From: a virus
Virus record (IMG/VR): IMGVR_UViG_3300044644_001556
Length of the DNA: 64,000 bases
Direction: 5' to 3' (one strand)
The position numbers and the translations under genes are program-made. Shown here piece by piece: positions 13,006 to 63,684 of the stretch. Numbering within the stretch: the first letter of the stretch is position 1; each line of letters starts with the position of its first letter. The notes below the pieces were generated by a model. That model saw nothing but the letters and a program-made list of their open reading frames with translations, did not search any database and was not told the DNA's origin.

Positions 13006-13053
13006 AGCACCTCCAATTAAAAAATATTATTATAATACATTAATACTATAAAA

Positions 13054-16418: not shown

Positions 16419-16764
16419 TATTAATGCGGATAGGCCTAACCGCTATTATATTCGAATTTTTATATAAACTACACGGCGAAGAAGCAAAAGCGGGAATAGT
16501 CATAGCCGAAGTATTAGAATATTCAAAATCAGTCCAATAATGCGATTCTCGTAATTCGTAATTACCATATTGTTTTATATCATAAAATTTACGCAATATA
16601 AATTCTAATTCTCCTCTATTCGGTAATCGCCAATCATTATAACCATCAATATTTAAAAATTGGCAATATAATATAGCCTCATACCAAGTCATTAGTTTTT
16701 CATATTGTTTTTCAGCAATAATTATATCATAGCCAACATTTAAACCACCAAAATATGATTTCAT
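16411..16764 (-). CDS. DUF1566-like protein
   Basis: MTWYEAILYCQFLNIDGYNDWRLP...YWT...VRPIR. Confidence 0.8.
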   Translation of the reverse strand: MKSYFGGLNVGYDIIIAEKQYEKLMTWYEAILYCQFLNIDGYNDWRLPNRGELEFILRKFYDIKQYGNYELRESHYWTDFEYSNTSAMTIPAFASSPCSLYKNSNIIAVRPIRINNE

Positions 16765-17435
16765 TTTCTATGCCTAAAACTTTGTTTTAAATCAAATCCA
16801 TGACCTTCGATTCGTAAATTATTTTCAATTTCGACCGGAGGTTTAATATCTGGTGAATCTTTCATTACATTACCTATAAAATATGAAATATCTTGAAATA
16901 ATTTTTCAGCGGAAATATAACTAGGAATACCCAAGTCCGCTAATACCGGTACTTTATAGTAATTATAAACAATATCATGACCATGAGTCAATACTTCACC
17001 AAAACTATACAAACCAGAATACTCAAATATTGGTGTTTGTAATTTATTTGATATTGCGATTAATTTATCGGTAAGTGATTCATTTCCGATATACTGTTCA
17101 TATGATGCAATTCTACGCCAATAAAAATGAGTCTCGAAATATTCTTTTAAATCATAATAATCATTCTGGGTAAATAATTTAAAATTAACCTTATCCTCAG
17201 CATACAATAAGTATAATTTCGCATTGATAATTAACCATTTAAATTTTTCTTGTAATGATGAAGCTTCACGCTGGCCCGGATGGTAAATATCAGCAAGTCT
17301 CATTATATTTTGCATTTCGCGTTGTATTGTAGGATCAACGAAAAATGGTTTTCTATTATATACAATTAATGGATCTACCCCATATTGATAGGCTATATGA
17401 TCGTAATAATCTTTATAGTTACTAATAATTTTCAT
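16761..17435 (-). CDS. conserved phage hypothetical protein
   Basis: MKIIS..KDYYD start and HGFDLKQSFRH end. Confidence 0.7.
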   Translation of the reverse strand: MKIISNYKDYYDHIAYQYGVDPLIVYNRKPFFVDPTIQREMQNIMRLADIYHPGQREASSLQEKFKWLIINAKLYLLYAEDKVNFKLFTQNDYYDLKEYFETHFYWRRIASYEQYIGNESLTDKLIAISNKLQTPIFEYSGLYSFGEVLTHGHDIVYNYYKVPVLADLGIPSYISAEKLFQDISYFIGNVMKDSPDIKPPVEIENNLRIEGHGFDLKQSFRHRK

Positions 17436-32746: not shown

Positions 32747-33177
32747 ATAAAAAAATAAGATAGATCTTGAATATCAATTGCTTTCCATTTACCGTTCAAA
32801 AACAAATAATGATAGTTTTTAGGATTATCTAAAATTGATGCAATATAAGAACCGACAGATTCATATAAATCATATAAAACTATATCGCCCCGATCTCTAC
32901 TATATAATACCGTTACATCATCGGCTGGAGTTTCAAACGAATGTTTACTATGCGAATCAAACTTATGTTTATTCCTTGACGTAACTTCAATAGGATTATA
33001 ATACATCCCTAATGAATATATAGCTCCACCACTAACTAAAGTTTCGGCATCTTCTTGTTCGCTATAAAATTGATTTAGTAATTTGCCGGCGTGTTTAATA
33101 TCACCATCTAATTGTAAATGAACTACTTTAATTGTGCAGTCGGATAATTGGACTGCTAATGATGCATTCGTTCCCAT
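32743..33177 (-). CDS. hypothetical protein, paralog of 62335..62715
   Basis: MGT.A..AV...DG...SLG...HSF..P....Y.RDRG. Confidence 0.7.
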   Translation of the reverse strand: MGTNASLAVQLSDCTIKVVHLQLDGDIKHAGKLLNQFYSEQEDAETLVSGGAIYSLGMYYNPIEVTSRNKHKFDSHSKHSFETPADDVTVLYSRDRGDIVLYDLYESVGSYIASILDNPKNYHYLFLNGKWKAIDIQDLSYFFI

Positions 33178-33202
33178 TTAAAGCTCCTACCCGTAAAAAT
33201 AT

Positions 33203-33231
33203 ATTATATCATACTATAATACTTTAGTCAA
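33203..33231 (-). promoter_or_regulatory. sigma70-like early promoter
   Basis: TTGACT-17-TATAAT. Confidence 0.7.
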
Positions 33232-33272
33232 TCATAAATAAAACGATTATATTTTAATTAATCGGATTAGTT

Positions 33273-33533
33273 ATGAGAAAAAATGAAAATGTCGGTCATA
33301 AATGGCGAGAAGCATTAGCTTGGTCTTATGTTGTAATTTGTTTATATGATTTTATGATAGGTCCGATCATTTATAATGTTTTGCAATTTTATAATCCGGA
33401 TCAACAAATTGGGATGTGGCAAGCAATTACGTTACAGGGTGGGGGTTTGTATCACTTATCGATGGGTGCGGTAATCGGTATTAGCGCTCACGGAAGAACT
33501 CAAGAAAAATTAGCGGATAAAGAAAATACTTAA
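33273..33533 (+). CDS. putative holin (GTA_holin_3TM-like)
   Basis: WR..LAW.Y..IC.YDF..P...W..ITLQGGGL.H..MGA.IG..A..RTQEK; CATAAATA at 33233-33240. Confidence 0.65.
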   Translation: MRKNENVGHKWREALAWSYVVICLYDFMIGPIIYNVLQFYNPDQQIGMWQAITLQGGGLYHLSMGAVIGISAHGRTQEKLADKENT

Positions 33534-33905
33534 TTAGACCTCTTCGGGTAATTCACTATCTAAAATATAGTCGATAAATTCACTAAGTTCGCCTGCGTTG
33601 TAATTAGGGTATTCGTTTCGTATTTCATCTTCCGATCCAGTAATGGGTTTATCATTATAAGAAACGATTACTGTACCATCACTGAGTAATAATAATTGAA
33701 TTGTTGATATTTTACCTAATTCGGAATTATATGCAATAACCTTAGTATCTGATTTCCAATTAACTTGATCGTAATCATATTGTTTTAACTTTGGATTAAC
33801 AACTTCATAAAATTTACGTTTTTGTTTTTCGTAAAATTGATTTATACCTTTTATTCCACCGAATAATAAATCTGGAGTTTTATAATATTTGTATAAATTT
33901 AACAT
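33534..33905 (-). CDS. protein with MLNLY.YY..P tag, late-promoter gene
   Basis: N-terminal motif; TATAAATA at 33930-33937. Confidence 0.68.
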   Translation of the reverse strand: MLNLYKYYKTPDLLFGGIKGINQFYEKQKRKFYEVVNPKLKQYDYDQVNWKSDTKVIAYNSELGKISTIQLLLLSDGTVIVSYNDKPITGSEDEIRNEYPNYNAGELSEFIDYILDSELPEEV

Positions 33906-33970
33906 TGATATTTACCGGATCAAATAACATATTTATATATTATTCGATCCGATAATCACATATCATAATA

Positions 33971-34219
33971 TTAAAATGATATAATTAACGAAGTAATTGT
34001 TTCTTCATTTTCTTTAGTGTCGACTAATTTAACATTGGCATTAAAGCCGCTTAAATCGGCTGTAAGCTGGTTAATACTATCTTCATCAAATGATATTGAT
34101 AGATTATAAAACTTTAATCTACGGCCGGTTTTGCGCTTATCATTAACCATTTTCTGGTATGATCTACCGATAGCGGCCTCAACGATAGATCTTACATGAG
34201 TAGTTGGGTTTGCTTCCAT
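33971..34219 (-). CDS. small protein, GRRLKF paralog family
   Basis: TTHVRSIVE..IGR...NDKRKTGRRLKF. Confidence 0.68.
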   Translation of the reverse strand: MEANPTTHVRSIVEAAIGRSYQKMVNDKRKTGRRLKFYNLSISFDEDSINQLTADLSGFNANVKLVDTKENEETITSLIISF

Positions 34220-34258
34220 TTTAATTTTCCTTAAATGTCTTATTAATTCAATTAATTG

Positions 34259-34597
34259 TTAGGATTCTGGATTACTTAGTTGCTTCAATTGTTCGTGGGT
34301 TTTATACCCGAAATAAAATATATTATTTTCTGCGACACAGAACGAATAACCATCACGTTCAATAAGCAATAGATAATCAATACTACCTTCAGGATTCGAT
34401 AACCAACCACTTTCTGAAATTTCATTGACTAATTCAGTTAACTCAACAGCATCTTGAATATCTTCGAAAAAAGCATCTTGATCTTCATTATCTTTATCTT
34501 TTAATTCCGTGGCGAATTTAATAACCGATAATGGAACCGCAAATTGTTCGTAATGCGTTTTACCCTGATTTTTTTTAATAGCTAAAACATTTAACAT
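34259..34597 (-). CDS. hypothetical protein
   Basis: ORF with GGAG SD. Confidence 0.65.
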   Translation of the reverse strand: MLNVLAIKKNQGKTHYEQFAVPLSVIKFATELKDKDNEDQDAFFEDIQDAVELTELVNEISESGWLSNPEGSIDYLLLIERDGYSFCVAENNIFYFGYKTHEQLKQLSNPES

Positions 34598-34607
34598 ATA
34601 TTCTCTC

Positions 34608-34823
34608 CTATTCTGCGATGGTTAAATTAAACAATTGAACATTCCAAACAACGCCACCGGCGGCTTCAACTTTAGCATACTTAGCAAATAATTCTACTAT
34701 TTTACCGGTCATTACTCGATCGTCAGGAACCCAAGTTACATTCATTCCAACTTTATATGGGTTACTAACTTGTTGTTGGTATGGGTTAATGTGATGTGCG
34801 TACGAAACTGGTCCAACTCTCAT
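34608..34823 (-). CDS. small SH3/KOW-like protein
   Basis: KVGM.V.W......GKIV pattern. Confidence 0.55.
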   Translation of the reverse strand: MRVGPVSYAHHINPYQQQVSNPYKVGMNVTWVPDDRVMTGKIVELFAKYAKVEAAGGVVWNVQLFNLTIAE

Positions 34824-34871
34824 ATATTTCTCCTATATTATATCTAATTTAGACTACAATGTCTACCTATT

Positions 34872-35057
34872 TTACAAATTAATTAATCCAGTTACTAAAA
34901 AAATAAGAAATAATATTCCTATTATTGCAGCAATACTAATTCTATGAATAAATGTTTCTTGACTTAATCGAAACTTCGAAAAATTATGCAATTGTTTTTG
35001 ACGTCTATTAATCCGTCTGTGTTTTATATGACGTTTTATTTTATTCAATCTACTCAT
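34872..35057 (-). CDS. small basic membrane peptide
   Basis: Basic N-terminus plus C-terminal TM; AAGGA SD. Confidence 0.55.
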   Translation of the reverse strand: MSRLNKIKRHIKHRRINRRQKQLHNFSKFRLSQETFIHRISIAAIIGILFLIFLVTGLINL

Positions 35058-35093
35058 ATTATTTCCTTTTTAAAATCGGACTCTAAAAAAACA

Positions 35094-35241
35094 AACCGAT
35101 GTATTACTATTAGTATCCCAAATCGGTTACCAGATACGTTATATAGAAGTGTGACTATCTATACCTTGAAATGCAAAAATAAAAGTGATAGATAAACGCA
35201 AGTTCACTTTTATCATAATAAAATATCGATAGTAATCGCAA
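35094..35241 (-). ncRNA. pseudoknotted 5'-UTR RNA, copy 1
   Basis: ATTACTAT/ATAGTAAT, GTATC/GATAC, loop AACCGAT pairs with 3' ATCGGTT; homolog at 39472-39637. Confidence 0.65.
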
Positions 35242-35255
35242 TAATTTTATTATGT

Positions 35256-35861
35256 TTATCTAATTCTAGGAATCAATATATGATTTCTAATGACATCACA
35301 TACGATAGGCTTATAGTTACCATTGGTATCTAATGATGCCATTCCATTATTACTTAACCAATTACTTAGTTGATTAGCATTTTCAAACGATATTTGTTCG
35401 TATGTATTACCTGATTTGCCGTATACGAACCCGTTACCCACACCGGGATATACGGTAACGACTTTATCATGATCGACATTAAAATTTAATCGGATCAGAC
35501 TATTTGGTCGTTCCATCGACGTATCAATGTAATCGATTATTTCAGCCTCAATAATTTTATTGCTGCTACCGGATCGAATAAATCTAACCATTATTAAATT
35601 TGGGCCAGTATACTTAGATCCTCCGGGGATATAACCTATCATTATCGGTTTACCGATAGATTCAGAATCAAATAATGTATTAGAAGCATATACTTGAACT
35701 GCATCAGGATCATGTCGATTAGTCGGTTCGTGTTTTAACCAACCAATATCGCCAGTACGAATATTACTATATACTGCATTTGCTTCTACATCTCGATAAT
35801 AATTACCGACTACTCGATATTTAGTTCCAACCCACTGATTAACTAATGCCTCGCGGACCAT
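35256..35861 (-). CDS. HIRAN-domain protein (probably C-terminal part of a -1 frameshift fusion starting in 36008..36652)
   Basis: VVG..Y, L.HEP.N.HDPDAV.V, IGYIP; frame stays open without a start codon up to 36011. Confidence 0.7.
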   Translation of the reverse strand: MVREALVNQWVGTKYRVVGNYYRDVEANAVYSNIRTGDIGWLKHEPTNRHDPDAVQVYASNTLFDSESIGKPIMIGYIPGGSKYTGPNLIMVRFIRSGSSNKIIEAEIIDYIDTSMERPNSLIRLNFNVDHDKVVTVYPGVGNGFVYGKSGNTYEQISFENANQLSNWLSNNGMASLDTNGNYKPIVCDVIRNHILIPRIR

Positions 35862-36007
35862 ATCTATAGTTTGGAAACCGTAATACTTAATACCATCTGG
35901 ATCTGATGGTGCGTCTTTATACGGATCTGATTGAGATATACCATTATCTTCTATTTCACGACAAATAGATTTACTATATGGCGATATCGTTTCAATCGGA
36001 TCCGATT

Positions 36008-36652
36008 TTACTTTTTTCCGAAGCCGCCATTCATCATCATCATTAATGGCAACATCTGAGCCATAGGATTAGCCGTACCCCCACCCATAGTTTGACTCAT
36101 TAATAACATAGGAATCATTTTATCCGCAGTATCAGAATCATCTAACATACCCATCATCATCATTGGCATTAAACTTTGTTGGAAATTATTTACACCATCT
36201 GAAGGCATCATATTAAATAAGCTACGCAAAATCATCACACCACTTTCAATACCAAGCATTGAAACTTTAGGTGGAGTCCAATCACTACGCGTTCCATCTT
36301 GTTTTAATAATTTAAAGCTTTTTTCTCGAATCTGAACGACCCAACCTAATGCTTTACCAGTTGAACTAGAATAAACTAAATCGCCTAATGAAATAGAATT
36401 AACTGGAATGCTTTGAGCGAATGCTGGAATACTCATACCCATCTGATCAAACATATTAACACATACTTGGGGTTCTAACGCTTCTTTTTTATCGTCAGTT
36501 AATTCGCCAAGTTCTAAACTTAGAATACCTTCTGATGTATTAAAGCCGATATTACCAGTACCTAAATCCCAAACCATATTATCTACTTTTTTAAATAATC
36601 GATCTACGAATTTTGAATTAAATTGATTTGAAAAATTATTTACATTATTCAT
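36008..36652 (-). CDS. protein with Met-rich C-terminus ending at an A_AAA_AAG slippery site
   Basis: PMMMMGM...PMLLM...PLMMMMNGGFGKK*; GGA AAA AAG TAA. Confidence 0.75.
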   Translation of the reverse strand: MNNVNNFSNQFNSKFVDRLFKKVDNMVWDLGTGNIGFNTSEGILSLELGELTDDKKEALEPQVCVNMFDQMGMSIPAFAQSIPVNSISLGDLVYSSSTGKALGWVVQIREKSFKLLKQDGTRSDWTPPKVSMLGIESGVMILRSLFNMMPSDGVNNFQQSLMPMMMMGMLDDSDTADKMIPMLLMSQTMGGGTANPMAQMLPLMMMMNGGFGKK

Positions 36653-36718
36653 ATTATTACCTTTTAATAAGTGTTATTTGTTACTACCTAAATATTATAT
36701 CATACTTTAATACTTAGA

Positions 36719-37126
36719 TCAACTAAAATCTTTATCTGATGGGTTGACTTCGAATCCGTAACTGTCGATATCGAATCCAGATTGTCGATATGAATCGGCG
36801 ATTATCTTTTGCGGCATTAAATTTCGTTGTTTACAACACCAAATATCAACACCTTCATTTAAATAATGTTGATATAGATTGATTATTTGATGATATTGAA
36901 GTTGGATTGCGTCCGCACTACCCCAAAAGAATAAATCATTGCAATTTACATATATCCCGATTGCATTGCGGGCGTATTTTGATAATTTTTTATCTTCTAC
37001 TTCATCATCGAAGGTTAATGTGTTTATGAAAACTATTCCTTTAGCCAATAAAAATGCTAAAATATCAGTAGTATCATCTTCATCTATTTCTGACGGATCG
37101 ATAGTAACTAAATCTAATTTACTCAT
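36719..37126 (-). CDS. hypothetical protein
   Basis: VNCND.F.WG.AD motif. Confidence 0.65.
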   Translation of the reverse strand: MSKLDLVTIDPSEIDEDDTTDILAFLLAKGIVFINTLTFDDEVEDKKLSKYARNAIGIYVNCNDLFFWGSADAIQLQYHQIINLYQHYLNEGVDIWCCKQRNLMPQKIIADSYRQSGFDIDSYGFEVNPSDKDFS

Positions 37127-37137
37127 TATTGCTCACC

Positions 37138-37320
37138 TTATGGTATTAAATGAACTCTATTAGCAGCTATTCGAATATTGACTCCATCGCTGCGTTTAAT
37201 ACATAGAGTCGGAATTTCGGTATAAATTACTTTAGTAATAACGCCAGTCGAATTCGGTTGGTTTTTAACTAACCAATAAACTTTATCACCGGGTTGTAAT
37301 TTTTTACGTAATTTTGACAT
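37138..37320 (-). CDS. small SH3/KOW-like protein
   Basis: LQPGDKVYW......GVI. Confidence 0.55.
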   Translation of the reverse strand: MSKLRKKLQPGDKVYWLVKNQPNSTGVITKVIYTEIPTLCIKRSDGVNIRIAANRVHLIP

Positions 37321-37342
37321 AACTCATTTCCTAAATAAAACA

Positions 37343-38239
37343 TTAATCAATATCGTGTTCTAAATTATATAATTCAGTATCTAATATTTTAGTGGTCGCT
37401 TCAATTAACATCCGATAGCCCCCATGATCGCAAGCTTGACTACCTTCATGACAACCAGGTAACCATTGCTTACGAGTTTTATCTATCAAATTATTAACAA
37501 ACGTACCTTTAATATAATCAGTAAGAAATACAGTTAATTCTTCAACCTTGTTTTTGACTATTAATTCAATAATATGATCATTCAAATTAAAGAATGTATT
37601 TCTAATATCATGCATCAATGTAACAACTACTAAATTAACTCTATTAGTTATTGGTGATTTTTCAAAGTAGCTTGAAAAACTGCTACTACTATTCAATTTA
37701 AATATAGAAAACATGATACTGTGGGTTGGATCATCTGGATCCGCCATACCACTTACCTTGTTTGTTAATACCTCAATAAATTCTGGTATTTCACTAAGAA
37801 CTTCTTGATATGTATATGGTTGATAACCTGATGCCTCAGCTATATAAACTTCCCGTACCCAATTGTCTAATACATAATCAACTACGTCTTTACGCATCAT
37901 AACGAAATCGATCAATCCTCCACCATAAGGATTATTGTATGTGATTTCATTGTCATGAACTAAATCAAAGAATTGATCGACATCAAATTCATCATCGTTA
38001 GATATATTACATTTTTCCTTGATCGCACGCATCAATGGATCCAATATCACTCCATGTGCATTATTACCACCACCGTAATCATTATAGTTACATTCAAACG
38101 GTACTAATACTGGTGTGAAGAACGATGTGCTGTAACATCTACCTACACCGCTATTCTGGACCAATATAAATGTATAAACTGGTTTATTATCAGTTATATG
38201 CAAATTCGATAAACCACATGTCTTATTCCAGCAACCCAT
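37343..38239 (-). CDS. hypothetical protein
   Basis: MGCWNKTC..S.L.I start, YNDYG and W.P...GSQ motifs. Confidence 0.72.
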   Translation of the reverse strand: MGCWNKTCGLSNLHITDNKPVYTFILVQNSGVGRCYSTSFFTPVLVPFECNYNDYGGGNNAHGVILDPLMRAIKEKCNISNDDEFDVDQFFDLVHDNEITYNNPYGGGLIDFVMMRKDVVDYVLDNWVREVYIAEASGYQPYTYQEVLSEIPEFIEVLTNKVSGMADPDDPTHSIMFSIFKLNSSSSFSSYFEKSPITNRVNLVVVTLMHDIRNTFFNLNDHIIELIVKNKVEELTVFLTDYIKGTFVNNLIDKTRKQWLPGCHEGSQACDHGGYRMLIEATTKILDTELYNLEHDID

Positions 38240-38437
38240 TATATTTTCCTAATTTTGACTTACGTAAAAAACGGTTTTGCAATCATTGCATTCATACATA
38301 ATTACTCGGTTATCGTAAATTTCAGTGACTACTGGAGTAAAATGTTCGTGGACTTCTAAAATTCCGCCATTCGGACTAATTGTTTTATCTAATTGATCAC
38401 TTGAACAATCTGGGCATTGCATAATTATATTCTCCGT

Positions 38438-38731
38438 TTAACTATATCGTACTAGCAAAAGTAAAGCTGGATTTGGTCTTCTTCGATCTTTTGGAAATGT
38501 GGTCCAGTAGTTAGATATTATACGTCTATTATACGATTTATCTAGCTCTATTTTATTAGTTAATTGTTTAGTAATAATTAACGTATTGATATATAAACTT
38601 AAATCTTGATAATTAGGAACTTGCCAATGCCTATACCCATCATGATTAAAAAACTGACGATATAATTGGACCTCAGACCAATTATTAATTACTTTAATTG
38701 AATCTATTGGCGCCCATATTAATTCATTCAT
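38438..38731 (-). CDS. divergent DUF1566-like protein
   Basis: NW.E..LY.QF..HDGY.HWQVP...YWT...LVR. Confidence 0.62.
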   Translation of the reverse strand: MNELIWAPIDSIKVINNWSEVQLYRQFFNHDGYRHWQVPNYQDLSLYINTLIITKQLTNKIELDKSYNRRIISNYWTTFPKDRRRPNPALLLLVRYS

Positions 38732-38739
38732 ATTTTAAA

Positions 38740-39420
38740 TTAAGCAGGAACTAAAACTGCAGCTAAAGCTTCTAATTGTTCTTTAGATAATCCAGAATTA
38801 TTAGTTATTGATTGGACTTGTCGTTCTTCCTCGAAATCATTTACGAATTGTTTATATTGATGATATAAGCGACTATTTTGCTTGATTACATCTTCACCTA
38901 ATTCAAATCGACCTTTTAAAACTTCTTTCGCGTAACTTAATGCAAATCTATCTTCGGTTGCAATAGCCGCTTCGCCTAACGGAAATGGTTCTTTTAATAT
39001 ATTTCTAGAGTAATAAAATGCATAATGCGGATCAGATGCGATTATAGGCTCACCTAATTCAAATCGTTCTTTAATTACTTCGGCGTAAGTAAATGCATAT
39101 CCCGGATTATCGATGAATAAATGATCTGCTAAATGGAATCGACCTTTTAAAATAGTTTTTGCATAATTTAAACTAAATAGTTCATTTGTCGCAATAATAT
39201 CTTCGCCTAATGTAAATGGACCTTTTAAAACTTTATATGCATATTCGTAGCTATATTCTGCCGATAACGCAATTATCTGTTCTAATTCATCATTCGGTTC
39301 TTCTAACGCTAATGCAATTTGGAATGCGGCTTTCGGACTAATAACTTTAACTAATATTTCTTTAGCTGGAAAATCATTAGATTGATCTTTAATTTCATCT
39401 ACTTGTGTAATTTCGGTCAT
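38740..39420 (-). CDS. ~25-aa tandem repeat helical protein
   Basis: Repeated YA..VLKG.F.LGE..IA. Confidence 0.7.
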   Translation of the reverse strand: MTEITQVDEIKDQSNDFPAKEILVKVISPKAAFQIALALEEPNDELEQIIALSAEYSYEYAYKVLKGPFTLGEDIIATNELFSLNYAKTILKGRFHLADHLFIDNPGYAFTYAEVIKERFELGEPIIASDPHYAFYYSRNILKEPFPLGEAAIATEDRFALSYAKEVLKGRFELGEDVIKQNSRLYHQYKQFVNDFEEERQVQSITNNSGLSKEQLEALAAVLVPA

Positions 39421-39471
39421 AAATATTCCTTTTTATAAATCGGTTAAGTCATAGAACTTTAAATTAATAAA

Positions 39472-39637
39472 TGACTGATGTATTACTATTTGTATCCCAG
39501 ATCAGTCAATAGATACGTTATACTCAATCTAACTCGAACCAAGGCAATGGTGTAAATTAAATTAGTACCTTATAAGGAGAGTGGACGCCCAAACTATCCA
39601 CTACTTATGATAAACGAACTTTCGATAGTAATTGCAA
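39472..39637 (-). ncRNA. pseudoknotted 5'-UTR RNA, copy 2
   Basis: Same stems as copy 1; loop TGACTGAT pairs with 3' ATCAGTCA (compensatory change). Confidence 0.65.
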
Positions 39638-39696
39638 AATTTGTCCGTACACCATGAACATATGAAGTCACTCATCATGCCATATTCTTTAAATCG

Positions 39697-40167
39697 TTAG
39701 CCGTCCCATTCGACTAACGTTGCGTTATTTCCGATCGCAAATTCTTCTAATAATTCAATAACTCGATTTTCATCCCCGCCTGCTAATCCGCAGCCGATTA
39801 ATGGGAATCCGAATCGTTTACCTTTTAATGCGTCGATACTACCTAATTGTCTTAAGATATTTTTAAAACCATCATATTCAAAAACATCTTCACCTCGACT
39901 AAAATCATATTGTGTATATGCATTACAAATAATAAATATCCGACCGTTCCGCTCTACTGTCGTAAAATTATAAGTCCCGACTTTATTTGCGCCTTTTACT
40001 GTTAAATTATCACTAACTACGACTTCGGGAAATAATTTAGCGATCTGACCAGCAATACCACTAGCCATCACATTAAAACAATTACACCCATGAACAATTA
40101 CATCAAATTTTCCATCAGTTGCTAATTGTAATAAATCGCCGGTTACTCGTTTTAAATGTTTAGTCAT
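39697..40167 (-). CDS. macrodomain (ADP-ribose binding/hydrolase) protein
   Basis: GDLL, IVHGCNC...M.SGIA, NAYTQ, FPLIGCGLAGG. Confidence 0.88.
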   Translation of the reverse strand: MTKHLKRVTGDLLQLATDGKFDVIVHGCNCFNVMASGIAGQIAKLFPEVVVSDNLTVKGANKVGTYNFTTVERNGRIFIICNAYTQYDFSRGEDVFEYDGFKNILRQLGSIDALKGKRFGFPLIGCGLAGGDENRVIELLEEFAIGNNATLVEWDG

Positions 40168-40197
40168 TATCTATTCCGTTTATTTTTAATTCAATAT

Positions 40198-40226
40198 ATT
40201 ATAATACGATAATACACATAAGTCAA
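40198..40226 (-). promoter_or_regulatory. sigma70-like early promoter
   Basis: TTGACT-17-TATAAT. Confidence 0.7.
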
Positions 40227-40231
40227 CAAAA

Positions 40232-40807
40232 TTATTCATTATATGCGGCCATTACTAAACCAACATAATTTTTCGTTTCTGGATATGGTGGGATACTATT
40301 ATTATGGCGCATTACGGCATGTTCGCCAGCATTATAACCAGCAATTGCTAATTTAGTATCCTTAAATGTATCTAATAAAAATTTAAGAAATTTTACTCCA
40401 CCGTCGATATTTTGTTTAGCGTCGGCTCGATCAGATACTCCAAATCGAGTAGCAGTTGCCGGCATTAATTGCATTAAACCAACAGCTCCTTTTTTACTGA
40501 CCGCTTTAGTCCTATATGTACTTTCAGTTTTAATAACCGCATGTATTAATTTTTCATCAACATTATATTTTAATGATGCTTTATGAATATAACTATTAAT
40601 TTCTTGTGCAGTTAAAACTTTAGGTTTTATTTTCGGTTTAGTCGATGCTTTTATAATAGGTTGTATTATTTTTATAGTCGGACTATTATTGGGTAAAACA
40701 ATCGGATCACTAGTTATAAACAATCTACCGGAATTATCAGATTCTATATAAACATTCGCACTAACCGGCGTTATAATTAATGCAGATACTATTAATGCTT
40801 TTATCAT
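40232..40807 (-). CDS. soluble lytic transglycosylase (SLT domain) with signal peptide
   Basis: AVIKTES, AVS.KGA.GLMQLMP.TA, AGYNAGE, PPYPET..YV. Confidence 0.9.
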   Translation of the reverse strand: MIKALIVSALIITPVSANVYIESDNSGRLFITSDPIVLPNNSPTIKIIQPIIKASTKPKIKPKVLTAQEINSYIHKASLKYNVDEKLIHAVIKTESTYRTKAVSKKGAVGLMQLMPATATRFGVSDRADAKQNIDGGVKFLKFLLDTFKDTKLAIAGYNAGEHAVMRHNNSIPPYPETKNYVGLVMAAYNE

Positions 40808-40943
40808 ATAATTTACCTTTTATTAAATAAGTTAGTTAATACAACAATATTAATTATACAGCATTTACCGATAAATGACTAACAATAAATCCAAAACATC
40901 TTCATCGTTAGTCTAATATAATCATAAGATGAGATTATTAACA

Positions 40944-41450
40944 TTAATTATAGCAAATTTTATTAACTAAGTTATTTACGGTAGATAAACCATTTTTACC
41001 AGTTATCTCAAATACTAATTTTTGATTTGTTAGATAAATTAAAAGTATATTAATATTAGAAGTATTTTCGTAAATATTAATTGCGCTAATATTAGCTAAC
41101 GGAATAATATATAGTCCGCCACTAGTAGAAAGAACTAATGGTGTTTTGCATCCACCAGGTTGAATATTTTTTATATTATCTGTTTTAATAATTTCATTAT
41201 CGGAATGGTCCGAATCATCTTTCGTTGTAGTAGTGGTTACTGATGCTACTATTTGTGGATCAGTTTTAATAATTTCATTATCCGAATGACCCGAATCGTC
41301 TTCCGTTGTAGTAGTGGTTGTAGTTACTGATGCTACTATTTGTGGATCAGTTTTATGTCGGGCATTATTTTGGGCGATCGTTCCCGCAACGACTGTAATC
41401 CCGAAAATAATTATCGATACTAGACATACTTTTGCTATATCATCAATCAT
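40944..41450 (-). CDS. membrane-anchored protein with internal duplication
   Basis: TM segment; KTDPQIVASVT(n)..DDS.HSDNEII twice. Confidence 0.65.
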   Translation of the reverse strand: MIDDIAKVCLVSIIIFGITVVAGTIAQNNARHKTDPQIVASVTTTTTTTEDDSGHSDNEIIKTDPQIVASVTTTTTKDDSDHSDNEIIKTDNIKNIQPGGCKTPLVLSTSGGLYIIPLANISAINIYENTSNINILLIYLTNQKLVFEITGKNGLSTVNNLVNKICYN

Positions 41451-41868
41451 TTACTAATTCCTTATTCGTTTTATCTTTAATTAATATTACGTTATTTTTA
41501 CTACTTTTACCAAAAAAATCTATTAATCCAGTTTCGAAATCATAAACCCAAGCTAATGGACTATGATGTTCAACACTAGACCAATATCTCTTATTGTATA
41601 AATCACCGACCGCATTATATATTTGACCTAATTCATCAATATCTGGTAATCGCCATCCATCTAAATTAGCTTGCTGGATTTCATGCCAAGTTAATGGAAT
41701 ATCGTAACCTAGTGATACTTCAAATGGTAAACCTAATAACTTACCTGAGGCGGCTTTTTGCTTTAATGCGATTATTCGATCAAAAAATTCATCACTTAAC
41801 GGCTTTGCTTGTTCTACTAATAACTGATTATCTAATAACGTCAAAATAGCAGCTTCAAAATCATTCAT
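41443..41868 (-). CDS. DUF1566-like domain protein with N-terminal extension
   Basis: LTW.E....GWRLPDIDEL...YWSS.E....AW. Confidence 0.75.
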   Translation of the reverse strand: MNDFEAAILTLLDNQLLVEQAKPLSDEFFDRIIALKQKAASGKLLGLPFEVSLGYDIPLTWHEIQQANLDGWRLPDIDELGQIYNAVGDLYNKRYWSSVEHHSPLAWVYDFETGLIDFFGKSSKNNVILIKDKTNKELVND

Positions 41869-61956: not shown

Positions 61957-61985
61957 ATTATAACAAAAAAAGACATCCATGTCCA
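61957..61985 (-). promoter_or_regulatory. early promoter (TGGACA variant)
   Basis: TGGACA-17-TATAAT plus ATATTTGTTGTAT. Confidence 0.72.
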
Positions 61986-62215
61986 GCCATTTGTTTACTT
62001 ACCACATACCGCACTATAACCAATAATAATCGATTGTAAATTCATCTGATCTAACACTACAGTCTTTTCTTGCTTTGATTTTAAACAATCAGCAATTGAA
62101 TCAAAATTAAAGGTTAATATAGTTGGTGGGGTTGATAAATGAAATGTTAATGCGATTACTAATTTAATCATTTTTGCTTTTCCTATTTAGTTAAGTTATC
62201 TGATACAACAAATAT

Positions 62216-62244
62216 ATTATAATACAATCAAGGACATTTGTCAA
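62216..62244 (-). promoter_or_regulatory. consensus early promoter
   Basis: TTGACA-17-TATAAT plus leader. Confidence 0.8.
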
Positions 62245-62334
62245 GCCTATATATTATATTATTGTTCAATCTTGATTTTGTTTGGCCCTAACTGTTTGAT
62301 TTAAAAAGAGACTTCCTTGTCTAAGCCATTCAAT

Positions 62335-62715
62335 TTATTTAATTAAAGATGATTTTGCTTTTTGCCATTTCTTACCATCAAAGTAATATACGTAATCACA
62401 ATACATATGTTCTTTAATAAACTCAAACATTGCCTTGCGATTGTCATACCCATTGTACTTTAATTCTTCACCTCTATCTCTATGATAGAACACTGTAGTA
62501 CCTGACTCCGGCGCATCAAATGAATGCTCACCTACTGGGTGAATACGTTCACCTAATGAACTAATATTGCCATGCATTACTAAGTCTTTTGCTACTGCTG
62601 GGTCTGAATAGTACTGAGTTAAGATTGGTAATAATGTTCCACCGTCCCAATTGACTGTAACTGATTCATATCTACGGCCGGCTAATTTAACTGCTACGAT
62701 TGCTTGCGTTCCCAT
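62335..62715 (-). CDS. hypothetical protein, paralog of 32743..33177
   Basis: MGT.A...WDG...GNISSLG...FYHRDRGE. Confidence 0.72.
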   Translation of the reverse strand: MGTQAIVAVKLAGRRYESVTVNWDGGTLLPILTQYYSDPAVAKDLVMHGNISSLGERIHPVGEHSFDAPESGTTVFYHRDRGEELKYNGYDNRKAMFEFIKEHMYCDYVYYFDGKKWQKAKSSLIK

Positions 62716-62757
62716 TTGGCTTTCCTTTTAAGTTAAGTTATCTGATACAACAAATAT

Positions 62758-62786
62758 ATTATAACTGATCGAGATCTTAATGTCCA
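62758..62786 (-). promoter_or_regulatory. early promoter (TGGACA variant)
   Basis: TGGACA-17-TATAAT plus leader. Confidence 0.72.
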
Positions 62787-62924
62787 GCTTTTTTAAAAAT
62801 TATCTATTACTGTACTTAACATAAACATAATGAAAATAACGAATGGTCCCACTGCATCTAATACTTCTAATTTAGTCATTTTGATTTACCTTTTTATTAA
62901 TTGGTTAATTGATACAACAAATAT

Positions 62925-62953
62925 ATTATAACAAAAAAAGACGTCCATGTCCA
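62925..62953 (-). promoter_or_regulatory. early promoter (TGGACA variant)
   Basis: TGGACA-17-TATAAT plus leader. Confidence 0.72.
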
Positions 62954-62962
62954 GCCTTTTGT

Positions 62963-63256
62963 TTAGAAATTAGCTAATGATTTTTCATATGAATACTCTG
63001 GTGTACCAGTACGTTCTCTTTCTAGTTTTGATTTGGTTAATGTCGTGATTCGTTTGCCTGATACAATTACAATTGACATTAGTCGTTGGTCCTTGTCATA
63101 ACCATACTTAATAGTCTCAATTACCTTACCTTTATTCTTACCCTTTAATATTTGAGTGATTGCTTCTATTCTCATATGGTGTTCGTTAAATACATTAATC
63201 ATTACTGTATTGTTGTAAGTTAAAGTTTTTTTAATTGAATAATATGGTTTGTTCAT
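62963..63256 (-). CDS. hypothetical basic protein
   Basis: Start revised to MNKPYY (promoter lies upstream of it). Confidence 0.65.
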   Translation of the reverse strand: MNKPYYSIKKTLTYNNTVMINVFNEHHMRIEAITQILKGKNKGKVIETIKYGYDKDQRLMSIVIVSGKRITTLTKSKLERERTGTPEYSYEKSLANF

Positions 63257-63298
63257 TTTTTTCCCTTTATTAAATTGGTTAATTAATACAACAAATAT

Positions 63299-63327
63299 AT
63301 TATATAATAAAAGGACGTCCATGTCCA
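63299..63327 (-). promoter_or_regulatory. early promoter (TGGACA variant)
   Basis: TGGACA-17-TATAAT plus leader. Confidence 0.72.
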
Positions 63328-63335
63328 GCTTTTTG

Positions 63336-63611
63336 TTAGGTTAAATGAAACTCTTTATTAACCCAATCAAATGCAATATAAATCTCACCCTCTTCATCGC
63401 AATGCTCCAGGTAATACATATCACCATCACCACTTGGATTACCTGGGAACCAATCCTCATTTTGCTTTACATATCCATACCCAGCCATTACTTTTTCTAA
63501 TGCCTGTACGAATTGTTCTTCAGTTCCATTAAATGCAAATTCGTATTTACATGCACCAATTGATTTAATTAAGATGCCGTAATCTGAAAATTGATATACT
63601 AATGATGTCAT
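63336..63611 (-). CDS. hypothetical acidic protein
   Basis: AAGGA SD and its own promoter. Confidence 0.68.
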   Translation of the reverse strand: MTSLVYQFSDYGILIKSIGACKYEFAFNGTEEQFVQALEKVMAGYGYVKQNEDWFPGNPSGDGDMYYLEHCDEEGEIYIAFDWVNKEFHLT

Positions 63612-63655
63612 TTTGCTTTCCTTTTAAGTTAAGTGTTATCTGATACAACAAAGAT

Positions 63656-63684
63656 ATTATACTATACTTACCCACCAATGTCCA
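63656..63684 (-). promoter_or_regulatory. early promoter (TGGACA variant)
   Basis: TGGACA-17-TATAAT plus leader. Confidence 0.72.

Follow-up and report, generated by a model that had tools for sequence, protein, structure and literature searches.

A family of pseudoknotted RNA elements in the early-gene regions of uncultured low-GC phages, with a possible role as a nuclease barrier

A 64,000-nt stretch of viral DNA (IMG/VR record IMGVR_UViG_3300044644_001556; the window) carries two minus-strand segments that begin and end alike, lie between genes of unrelated families, and raise the question of what kind of element they represent and what it does there. A first-pass annotation made from the letters alone had described them as two copies of an unrecognized pseudoknotted RNA of 5′ untranslated regions. 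Re-reading of the sequence placed both copies where that annotation had put them, at 35091-35241 (copy 1, 151 nt) and 39470-39637 (copy 2, 168 nt). Pairwise alignment recovered the shared ends, a 17-nt 5′ block and a 53-nt 3′ block common to both copies, within which the two differ only at pseudoknot positions, and the 90-110 nt between the blocks cannot be aligned. The window contains exactly two occurrences of a 22-nt core of the 3′ block, where shuffles predict 0.01.

All three predicted helices are present in both copies. P1, an 8-bp helix, pairs 35229-35236 with 35103-35110 in copy 1 and 39625-39632 with 39482-39489 in copy 2, and closes a multi-way junction comprising S1, which is conserved, and two or three variable hairpins. 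S1 has a 6-bp stem and spans 35113-35137 in copy 1 (35137-35132 pairing with 35118-35113) and 39492-39516 in copy 2 (39516-39511 with 39497-39492). Its loop, 13 nt in copy 1, pairs with 5-8 nt that start two bases past the P1 3′ strand, forming a pseudoknot between 35128-35122 and 35094-35100 in copy 1 and between 39508-39501 and 39472-39479 in copy 2. The C-G to U-A compensatory difference reported for this helix was confirmed, and a second one, A-U to G-C, was found. The linkers are short, with 2-3 nt from S1 to P1 and AC between P1 and the tail, and the conserved unpaired junction nucleotides are AAC before S1, AC after P1, and C-R-R after the P1 5′ strand.

The middle regions do differ between the copies as described, but each folds into two hairpins rather than a single long one. 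In copy 1 (35141-35214) these are P2 (35214-35178) and P3 (35164-35141), separated by a conserved unpaired AAGG; in copy 2 (39520-39608) they are P2 (39608-39572), which includes a small CCU/AGG hairpin, and a long P3 (39568-39520). Across the family described below, the middle of each copy consists of two or three hairpins that differ freely among copies. The small CCU/AGG hairpin is found in all copies except those of the copy-1 type, and its AGG is conserved in all.

Relatives were reached through homologs of a 298-aa protein encoded between the two window copies. They include near-identical strains (L184-L193), the syntenic relative L194 (69% protein identity), and relatives at 60% (L196) and 53% (L200) identity. 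A search with a covariance model of the 3′ block (R1) brought to light seven further distinct copies, three in L196 and two each in L194 and L200, in addition to strain variants. With a full-length covariance model (R2), searched against the window, 25 IMG/VR loci of relatives with 30-35% identity (and, in addition, a partial match of 58 residues at 61%), and other loci, the nine distinct copies score 98-133 bits (126.9 for copy 1 and 133 for copy 2) and nothing else exceeds 18 bits. Element length across the family ranges from 127 to 168 nt.

Base pairing was evaluated on an alignment of 11 sequences (A3) over 22 base pairs, each combination of pair and sequence counting as one cell. Overall, 97.1% of cells are paired. 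Pairing is complete in P1 and S1 (100% of cells each) and reaches 91.9% in the pseudoknot. Covariation in additional homologs, on which the case for an RNA structure depended, is present in all three helices, with seven pairs changed on both sides: one in P1 (pair 2, U-A to C-G in three of the relatives' copies), two in S1 with U-G intermediates, and four of the eight pseudoknot pairs. A further P1 pair changes from A-U to G-U, and the closing pair of S1 varies compatibly even among close strains (U-G, C-G, or U-A). When the 3′ partners were slid by 1-3 columns as a control, pairing fell to 23-50% with only 0-2 double-changed pairs. Five cells are G-U pairs, functional solely on the gene-sense strand, as the other strand would give A-C mismatches; this strand specificity indicates that the folded molecule is the sense-strand RNA. 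Finally, a sequence-blind descriptor (a hairpin, 2-3 nt, an 8-nt strand with an upstream partner, AC, and a loop-tail pairing of at least 6 bp) retrieved only true copies from 1.3 Mb of phage DNA, and none from shuffles. Together these comparisons make it very probable that the copies form a family of structured RNAs with a junction and a pseudoknot, transcribed in the sense of the phage early genes.

The elements are also better conserved than their surroundings. Between the window and L194 they are 95% and 91% identical, against 79% and 63% for the third codon positions of the adjacent genes, and copies L196a and L200a have unalignable middles and a nearly identical 3′ block. As judged from these identities, the element is under strong purifying selection. 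Hairpins at the 5′ end that sequester the P1 5′ strand can be drawn for L196b, L196c, and L200b; they are not general and are sterically incompatible with P1, and could at most be folding intermediates.

The element matches no class catalogued in Rfam, in agreement with its original description as unrecognized. No Rfam 15 family matches any copy, and this includes the known ribozyme classes. A scan of the window at Rfam gathering scores returned tRNAs only, and the tRNA model placed 11 tRNAs at 22-26 kb and nothing at the elements. A permissive scan of 33000-41500 (E<=10) gave three weak unrelated matches, none on the elements, and in L196 and L200, scanned at E<=5, none of the five divergent copies was hit. 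Searching the literature by sequence string and by run accession turned up no relevant work. On this evidence the family is new to Rfam 15 and appears to be of a known general kind, namely covariation-supported intergenic motifs of phages.

The family is also narrow, to judge from the loci searched: it is restricted to a clade of uncultured phages of low GC content, whose early-gene regions hold two to three copies each. No copy is present in the more distant members L197, L201, and L202, nor in the approximately 8 kb past the window end (L203). DNA and protein searches of GenBank phages revealed no close relative of the window. Relatives of the neighbouring proteins in IMG/VR are only 30-50% identical and their loci lack the element, and homologs of the 226-aa protein encoded downstream of copy 2 lie in non-syntenic contexts from which it is likewise absent. 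Proteins identical to those of the window are encoded on contigs as long as 173 kb in NCBI, JGI, ENA, and Logan, and one contig carrying the element comes from JGI sample 3300002835.

Two short motifs, searched as exact patterns in IMG/VR, gave chance matches only, none of which scored against R1, and a stricter 22-base pattern had no matches there. The stricter pattern matched once each among metagenome contigs (L198:2823-2884) and genome contigs (L199:6911-6972, Limosilactobacillus ingluviei NZ_AZFK01000088.1). Both sites are the same sequence, 62 nt inside a 455-aa open reading frame (ORF) in the Limosilactobacillus genome. The stretch combines a hairpin resembling S1 with a loop-tail pairing of 8 bp and the motif of the P1 3′ strand; the two contigs are identical until 8 nt past the look-alike and then diverge. 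With no P1 5′ strand, the match was judged a probable coincidence. Within the window, a look-alike of the 3′ block at 16902-16961 (minus strand; 15.5 bits) carries compatible S1- and pseudoknot-like pairings; it lies inside a 224-aa ORF (16761-17435), has no obvious upstream P1 partner, and was judged a chance resemblance.

The window has 31% GC and all of its genes on the minus strand, among them 11 tRNAs, NAMPT, an NMNAT-Nudix protein, an RNA ligase, a macro-domain protein, and a HIRAN-domain protein, as well as dozens of Lcl_C/DUF1566 mini-genes. Copies of the element occupy gaps of approximately 190-550 nt between same-strand genes of unrelated families, with 15-72 nt from the element 3′ end to the next start codon. 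Copy 1 is flanked by the HIRAN-domain gene (35256-35861) and a 61-aa basic, transmembrane ORF (34872-35057), and copy 2 by the macro-domain gene (39697-40167) and the gene for a 226-aa repeat protein (38740-39420); the pseudoknot ends 36 nt before the start codon at 35057 in copy 1 and 51 nt before that at 39420 in copy 2. The proteins encoded downstream of copies are unrelated to one another (the 61-aa and 226-aa proteins, a 68-aa transmembrane protein, and proteins of 95 and 121 aa), and none of these ORFs has a Pfam or PHROG function. The 226-aa protein consists of repeats of approximately 30 aa and belongs to no Pfam or PHROG family; its 171 homologs include many on large phage contigs of up to 487 kb. 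The HIRAN-domain ORF is called at 243 aa in a near-identical strain (L184:7785-8516), compared with 201 aa in the window.

Strict promoters (TTGACW-N16-18-TATAAT) number seven within 541-62244, all on the minus strand, against 0.42 expected, and these sites are probably the starts of transcription units. Those nearest the copies are a sigma-70-type site at 40198-40226 (minus), ahead of the macro-domain gene and probably the start of the unit with both copies, and a site at 33231-33203 (minus). Given these positions, both copies may share a single unit of approximately 7 kb and be intercistronic within it. Weaker promoter-like sites precede several copies, among them one at 35249-35276 (minus) that ends 8 nt before copy 1 and has its predicted RNA start at the 5′ block; sites of this quality are no commoner in the sequence than in shuffles. 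The sole promoter footprint is in the L196c/L200b pair, where the upstream hexamers are conserved and the spacer has diverged. The proposed assignment to 5′ untranslated regions therefore holds in part: a start codon does follow most copies, but the window copies are probably intercistronic and L196b has no downstream ORF.

A separate promoter arrangement was observed at the mini-genes. An intergenic cassette of 80-84 nt precedes at least 11 of them, at 61957-63684 (minus) and L203:600-7700, and consists of a TGGACA -35 box, a 17-nt spacer that holds a GGACGTCC-type palindrome in most copies, TATAAT, and a conserved leader with a ribosome-binding site. Five strict copies occur in the window against 0.16 expected, and the cassette looks like an early promoter family with a possible operator.

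We tentatively favour an explanation in which the element is a knot-like nuclease barrier or processing boundary, a stability module with a topology like that of exoribonuclease-resistant RNAs (xrRNAs). The short linkers would force S1 to lie alongside P1, so that the pseudoknot would sit at the outer end of P1, beside the incoming 5′ strand. Within polycistronic early transcripts the fold would then work in cis and need no small-molecule ligand, serving as a processing boundary or a mechanical barrier and halting 5′-to-3′ decay or attack that depends on the 5′ end, and the outcome would be a stable RNA that begins at the element and carries whatever lies downstream. Its position in gaps between genes of unrelated families fits such a gene-independent function in cis. 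The known precedent is the flaviviral xrRNAs, in which an L3-S4 pseudoknot belongs to a fold that forms a ring around its own 5′ end; they are general mechanical blocks that also stop bacterial RNase J1 in vitro (PMC5760640).

Several observations weigh against this explanation. No Rfam xrRNA model matches. A second hallmark of xrRNAs is a 2-bp pairing that joins the 5′ end to the junction; when the conserved 5′ flank of the element (Y-Y-G-C-R in alignment A3) was read against the junction nucleotides, no partner proved consistent in all copies. Copy L196b (L196:11841-11978) faces convergent genes and has no ORF downstream that could be protected. The explanation presupposes a host with a 5′-to-3′ exonuclease such as RNase J. 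The z-scores of the minimum free energy are unremarkable (-1.5 and -1.4 for the two window copies), and the support for structure therefore comes from comparison between copies rather than from thermodynamics. Lastly, six of the eight pairs in P1 and four of the six in S1 are invariant, and such strong conservation of helix sequence could equally mean recognition by a protein.

Protein recognition is the closest competitor, somewhat less probable than the barrier: the element would be bound as RNA by RNA polymerase itself or by a protein of the phage or its host, either as a processive antitermination signal like nut, put, or EAR or as a translational operator common to several early units. 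Besides the invariant helix pairs, where sequence and not only pairing is kept, the two or three copies per early region ahead of unrelated genes and the conserved promoter hexamers upstream of L196c and L200b would fit such a site. The L194 paralogs also share a change, with U in both copies at position 4 of the 5′ block where the window has C (L194:8603-8608 and 13021-13026, compared with 39637-39632 and 35241-35236), and this parallel change hints at one shared partner. Early or long operons with two or more copies of a cis-acting RNA signal are well known from HK022 (putL and putR), lambda (nut), and Bacillus (EAR). The put and nut sites, however, are simple stem-loops that lack both junction and pseudoknot, the element matches no antitermination family in Rfam, no candidate binding protein was identified, and a copy that runs into convergent genes (L196b) would be odd for an antiterminator.

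A further candidate is a new class of self-cleaving ribozyme, whose cleavage site in early transcripts would lie at or close to the conserved 5′ block or a junction. Conserved unpaired junction nucleotides, a pseudoknot, freely variable peripheral hairpins, and several copies per phage genome beside unrelated genes form a profile shared by phage copies of the twister, pistol, hatchet, and hammerhead ribozymes. We nevertheless consider this unlikely: no ribozyme model in Rfam 15 matches, at 127-168 nt the element is larger than most small ribozymes, and its topology is unlike that of the hepatitis delta virus (HDV)-like class, the 5′ strand of the pseudoknot sitting within a hairpin loop.

The setting of some copies in the relatives would suit a stand-alone, trans-acting small RNA (a decoy, sponge, or guide) with the variable hairpins lending specificity to a constant scaffold. 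Upstream of L196b lies a promoter-like site whose second hexamer is the consensus TATAAT, and a hairpin and the convergent genes follow the copy; a small conserved hairpin and a U-rich stretch separate L196c and L200b from the next gene. In the window, L194, and L196a, by contrast, the next start codon lies within 15-50 nt and leaves no room for a promoter, so that the element must be part of the mRNA there; moreover, no terminator-like site follows the window copies and no conserved terminator lies behind them. This explanation is slightly less probable still than a ribozyme. Around L196b itself (L196:11700-12000), part of the 5′ block is duplicated in the leader together with a hairpin that imitates inner P1, and the trailing hairpin overlaps the stop codon of a convergent holin-like gene; the region is a possible non-coding or antisense unit.

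A riboswitch, with the junction and pseudoknot as receptor for a metabolite (NAD+, ADP-ribose, or a nucleotide) that would regulate the gene downstream, had been among the first suggestions, and the aptamer-like architecture, the conserved junction nucleotides, and the NAD salvage enzymes and macro domain encoded by the phage all speak for it. This suggestion did not hold up well and we regard it as improbable. The downstream genes share no pathway, the distance to the start codon varies (15-72 nt), no riboswitch model matches, and no conserved expression platform was found; single changes in L184, L192, and L194 disrupt the alternative hairpins that can be drawn for the window between the tail and downstream sequence. 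The macro-domain gene, furthermore, lies upstream of the element rather than downstream, and in L194 (L194:7268-8600) it is replaced by a gene for a 335-aa glycosyltransferase while the element is retained, with approximately 100 nt of the macro 3′ end left as a non-coding remnant just upstream of the element. The site looks like a gene-replacement hotspot.

Very little, finally, speaks for a DNA-level repeat (a promoter, recombination site, or end of a mobile element) or for chance similarity in place of an RNA structure: in the window and L194 the 5′ block does begin with a -35-like hexamer, and a -10-like one follows 18-19 nt further on, but the covariation of P1 requires its 5′ and 3′ strands to be in one molecule, the G-U pairs are strand-specific, the -35-like hexamer is missing from the L196 and L200 copies, which together with the P1 covariation rules out an internal promoter as the explanation, and chance is excluded by the 22-nt core count and the descriptor search against shuffles.

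Structured RNAs of phages are poorly charted, and this element has unusually clean comparative support from only nine distinct copies. It may be the first exoribonuclease-resistant, knot-like RNA of a phage, or else a new self-cleaving ribozyme class, and in that event a protein-independent means of setting the 5′ ends and lifetimes of early messages. Were the nuclease barrier real, the xrRNA principle would be carried from eukaryotic RNA viruses to bacterial viruses, and a portable mRNA-stabilizing part for bacteria would result; were the element a ribozyme or an antitermination signal, a new class would be added. In every case it marks regulatory boundaries in the long early-gene array of a novel clade of freshwater phages, and its compact size (approximately 130-170 nt) makes it testable.

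Set beside known systems, the element resembles the antitermination RNAs put, nut, and EAR in being a multi-copy, sequence-conserved cis signal independent of the identity of the downstream gene, but shares neither sequence nor fold with them. Aptamers of the SAM-I/IV type likewise combine a multi-way junction closed by P1 with a pseudoknot from a loop to the 3′ tail; unlike them, the element has no common downstream pathway, conserved expression platform, or model match. With the small ribozymes of phages (twister, pistol, hatchet, hammerhead, and HDV-like) it has in common a pseudoknot, a conserved junction, variable stems, and scattered copies, but it is larger, matches no class, and differs in strand order from the HDV-like and pistol ribozymes.

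A catalogue drawn from IMG/VR 3 lists 8,495 candidate structured RNAs of 29-151 nt (mean 67; PMC10690425). Like the element, these are covariation-supported intergenic motifs of uncultured phages, mostly without an assigned function; at 127-168 nt the element is long by comparison, and its motif has no match in the IMG/VR copy searched. The likeness to class 1 flaviviral xrRNAs (PMC5760640) is one of secondary structure, with no match in sequence or covariance model. The element differs in its 8-bp P1 and four- to five-way junction, and in coming from a bacterial DNA phage, where it lies upstream of or between genes and not in a 3′ untranslated region. Both, however, have a multi-way junction closed by P1 with one or more variable arms between P1 and the loop-pairing hairpin, an L3-S4-type pairing in which a hairpin beside the P1 3′ strand pairs with the sequence right after P1, several conserved junction nucleotides, and multiple copies per genome.

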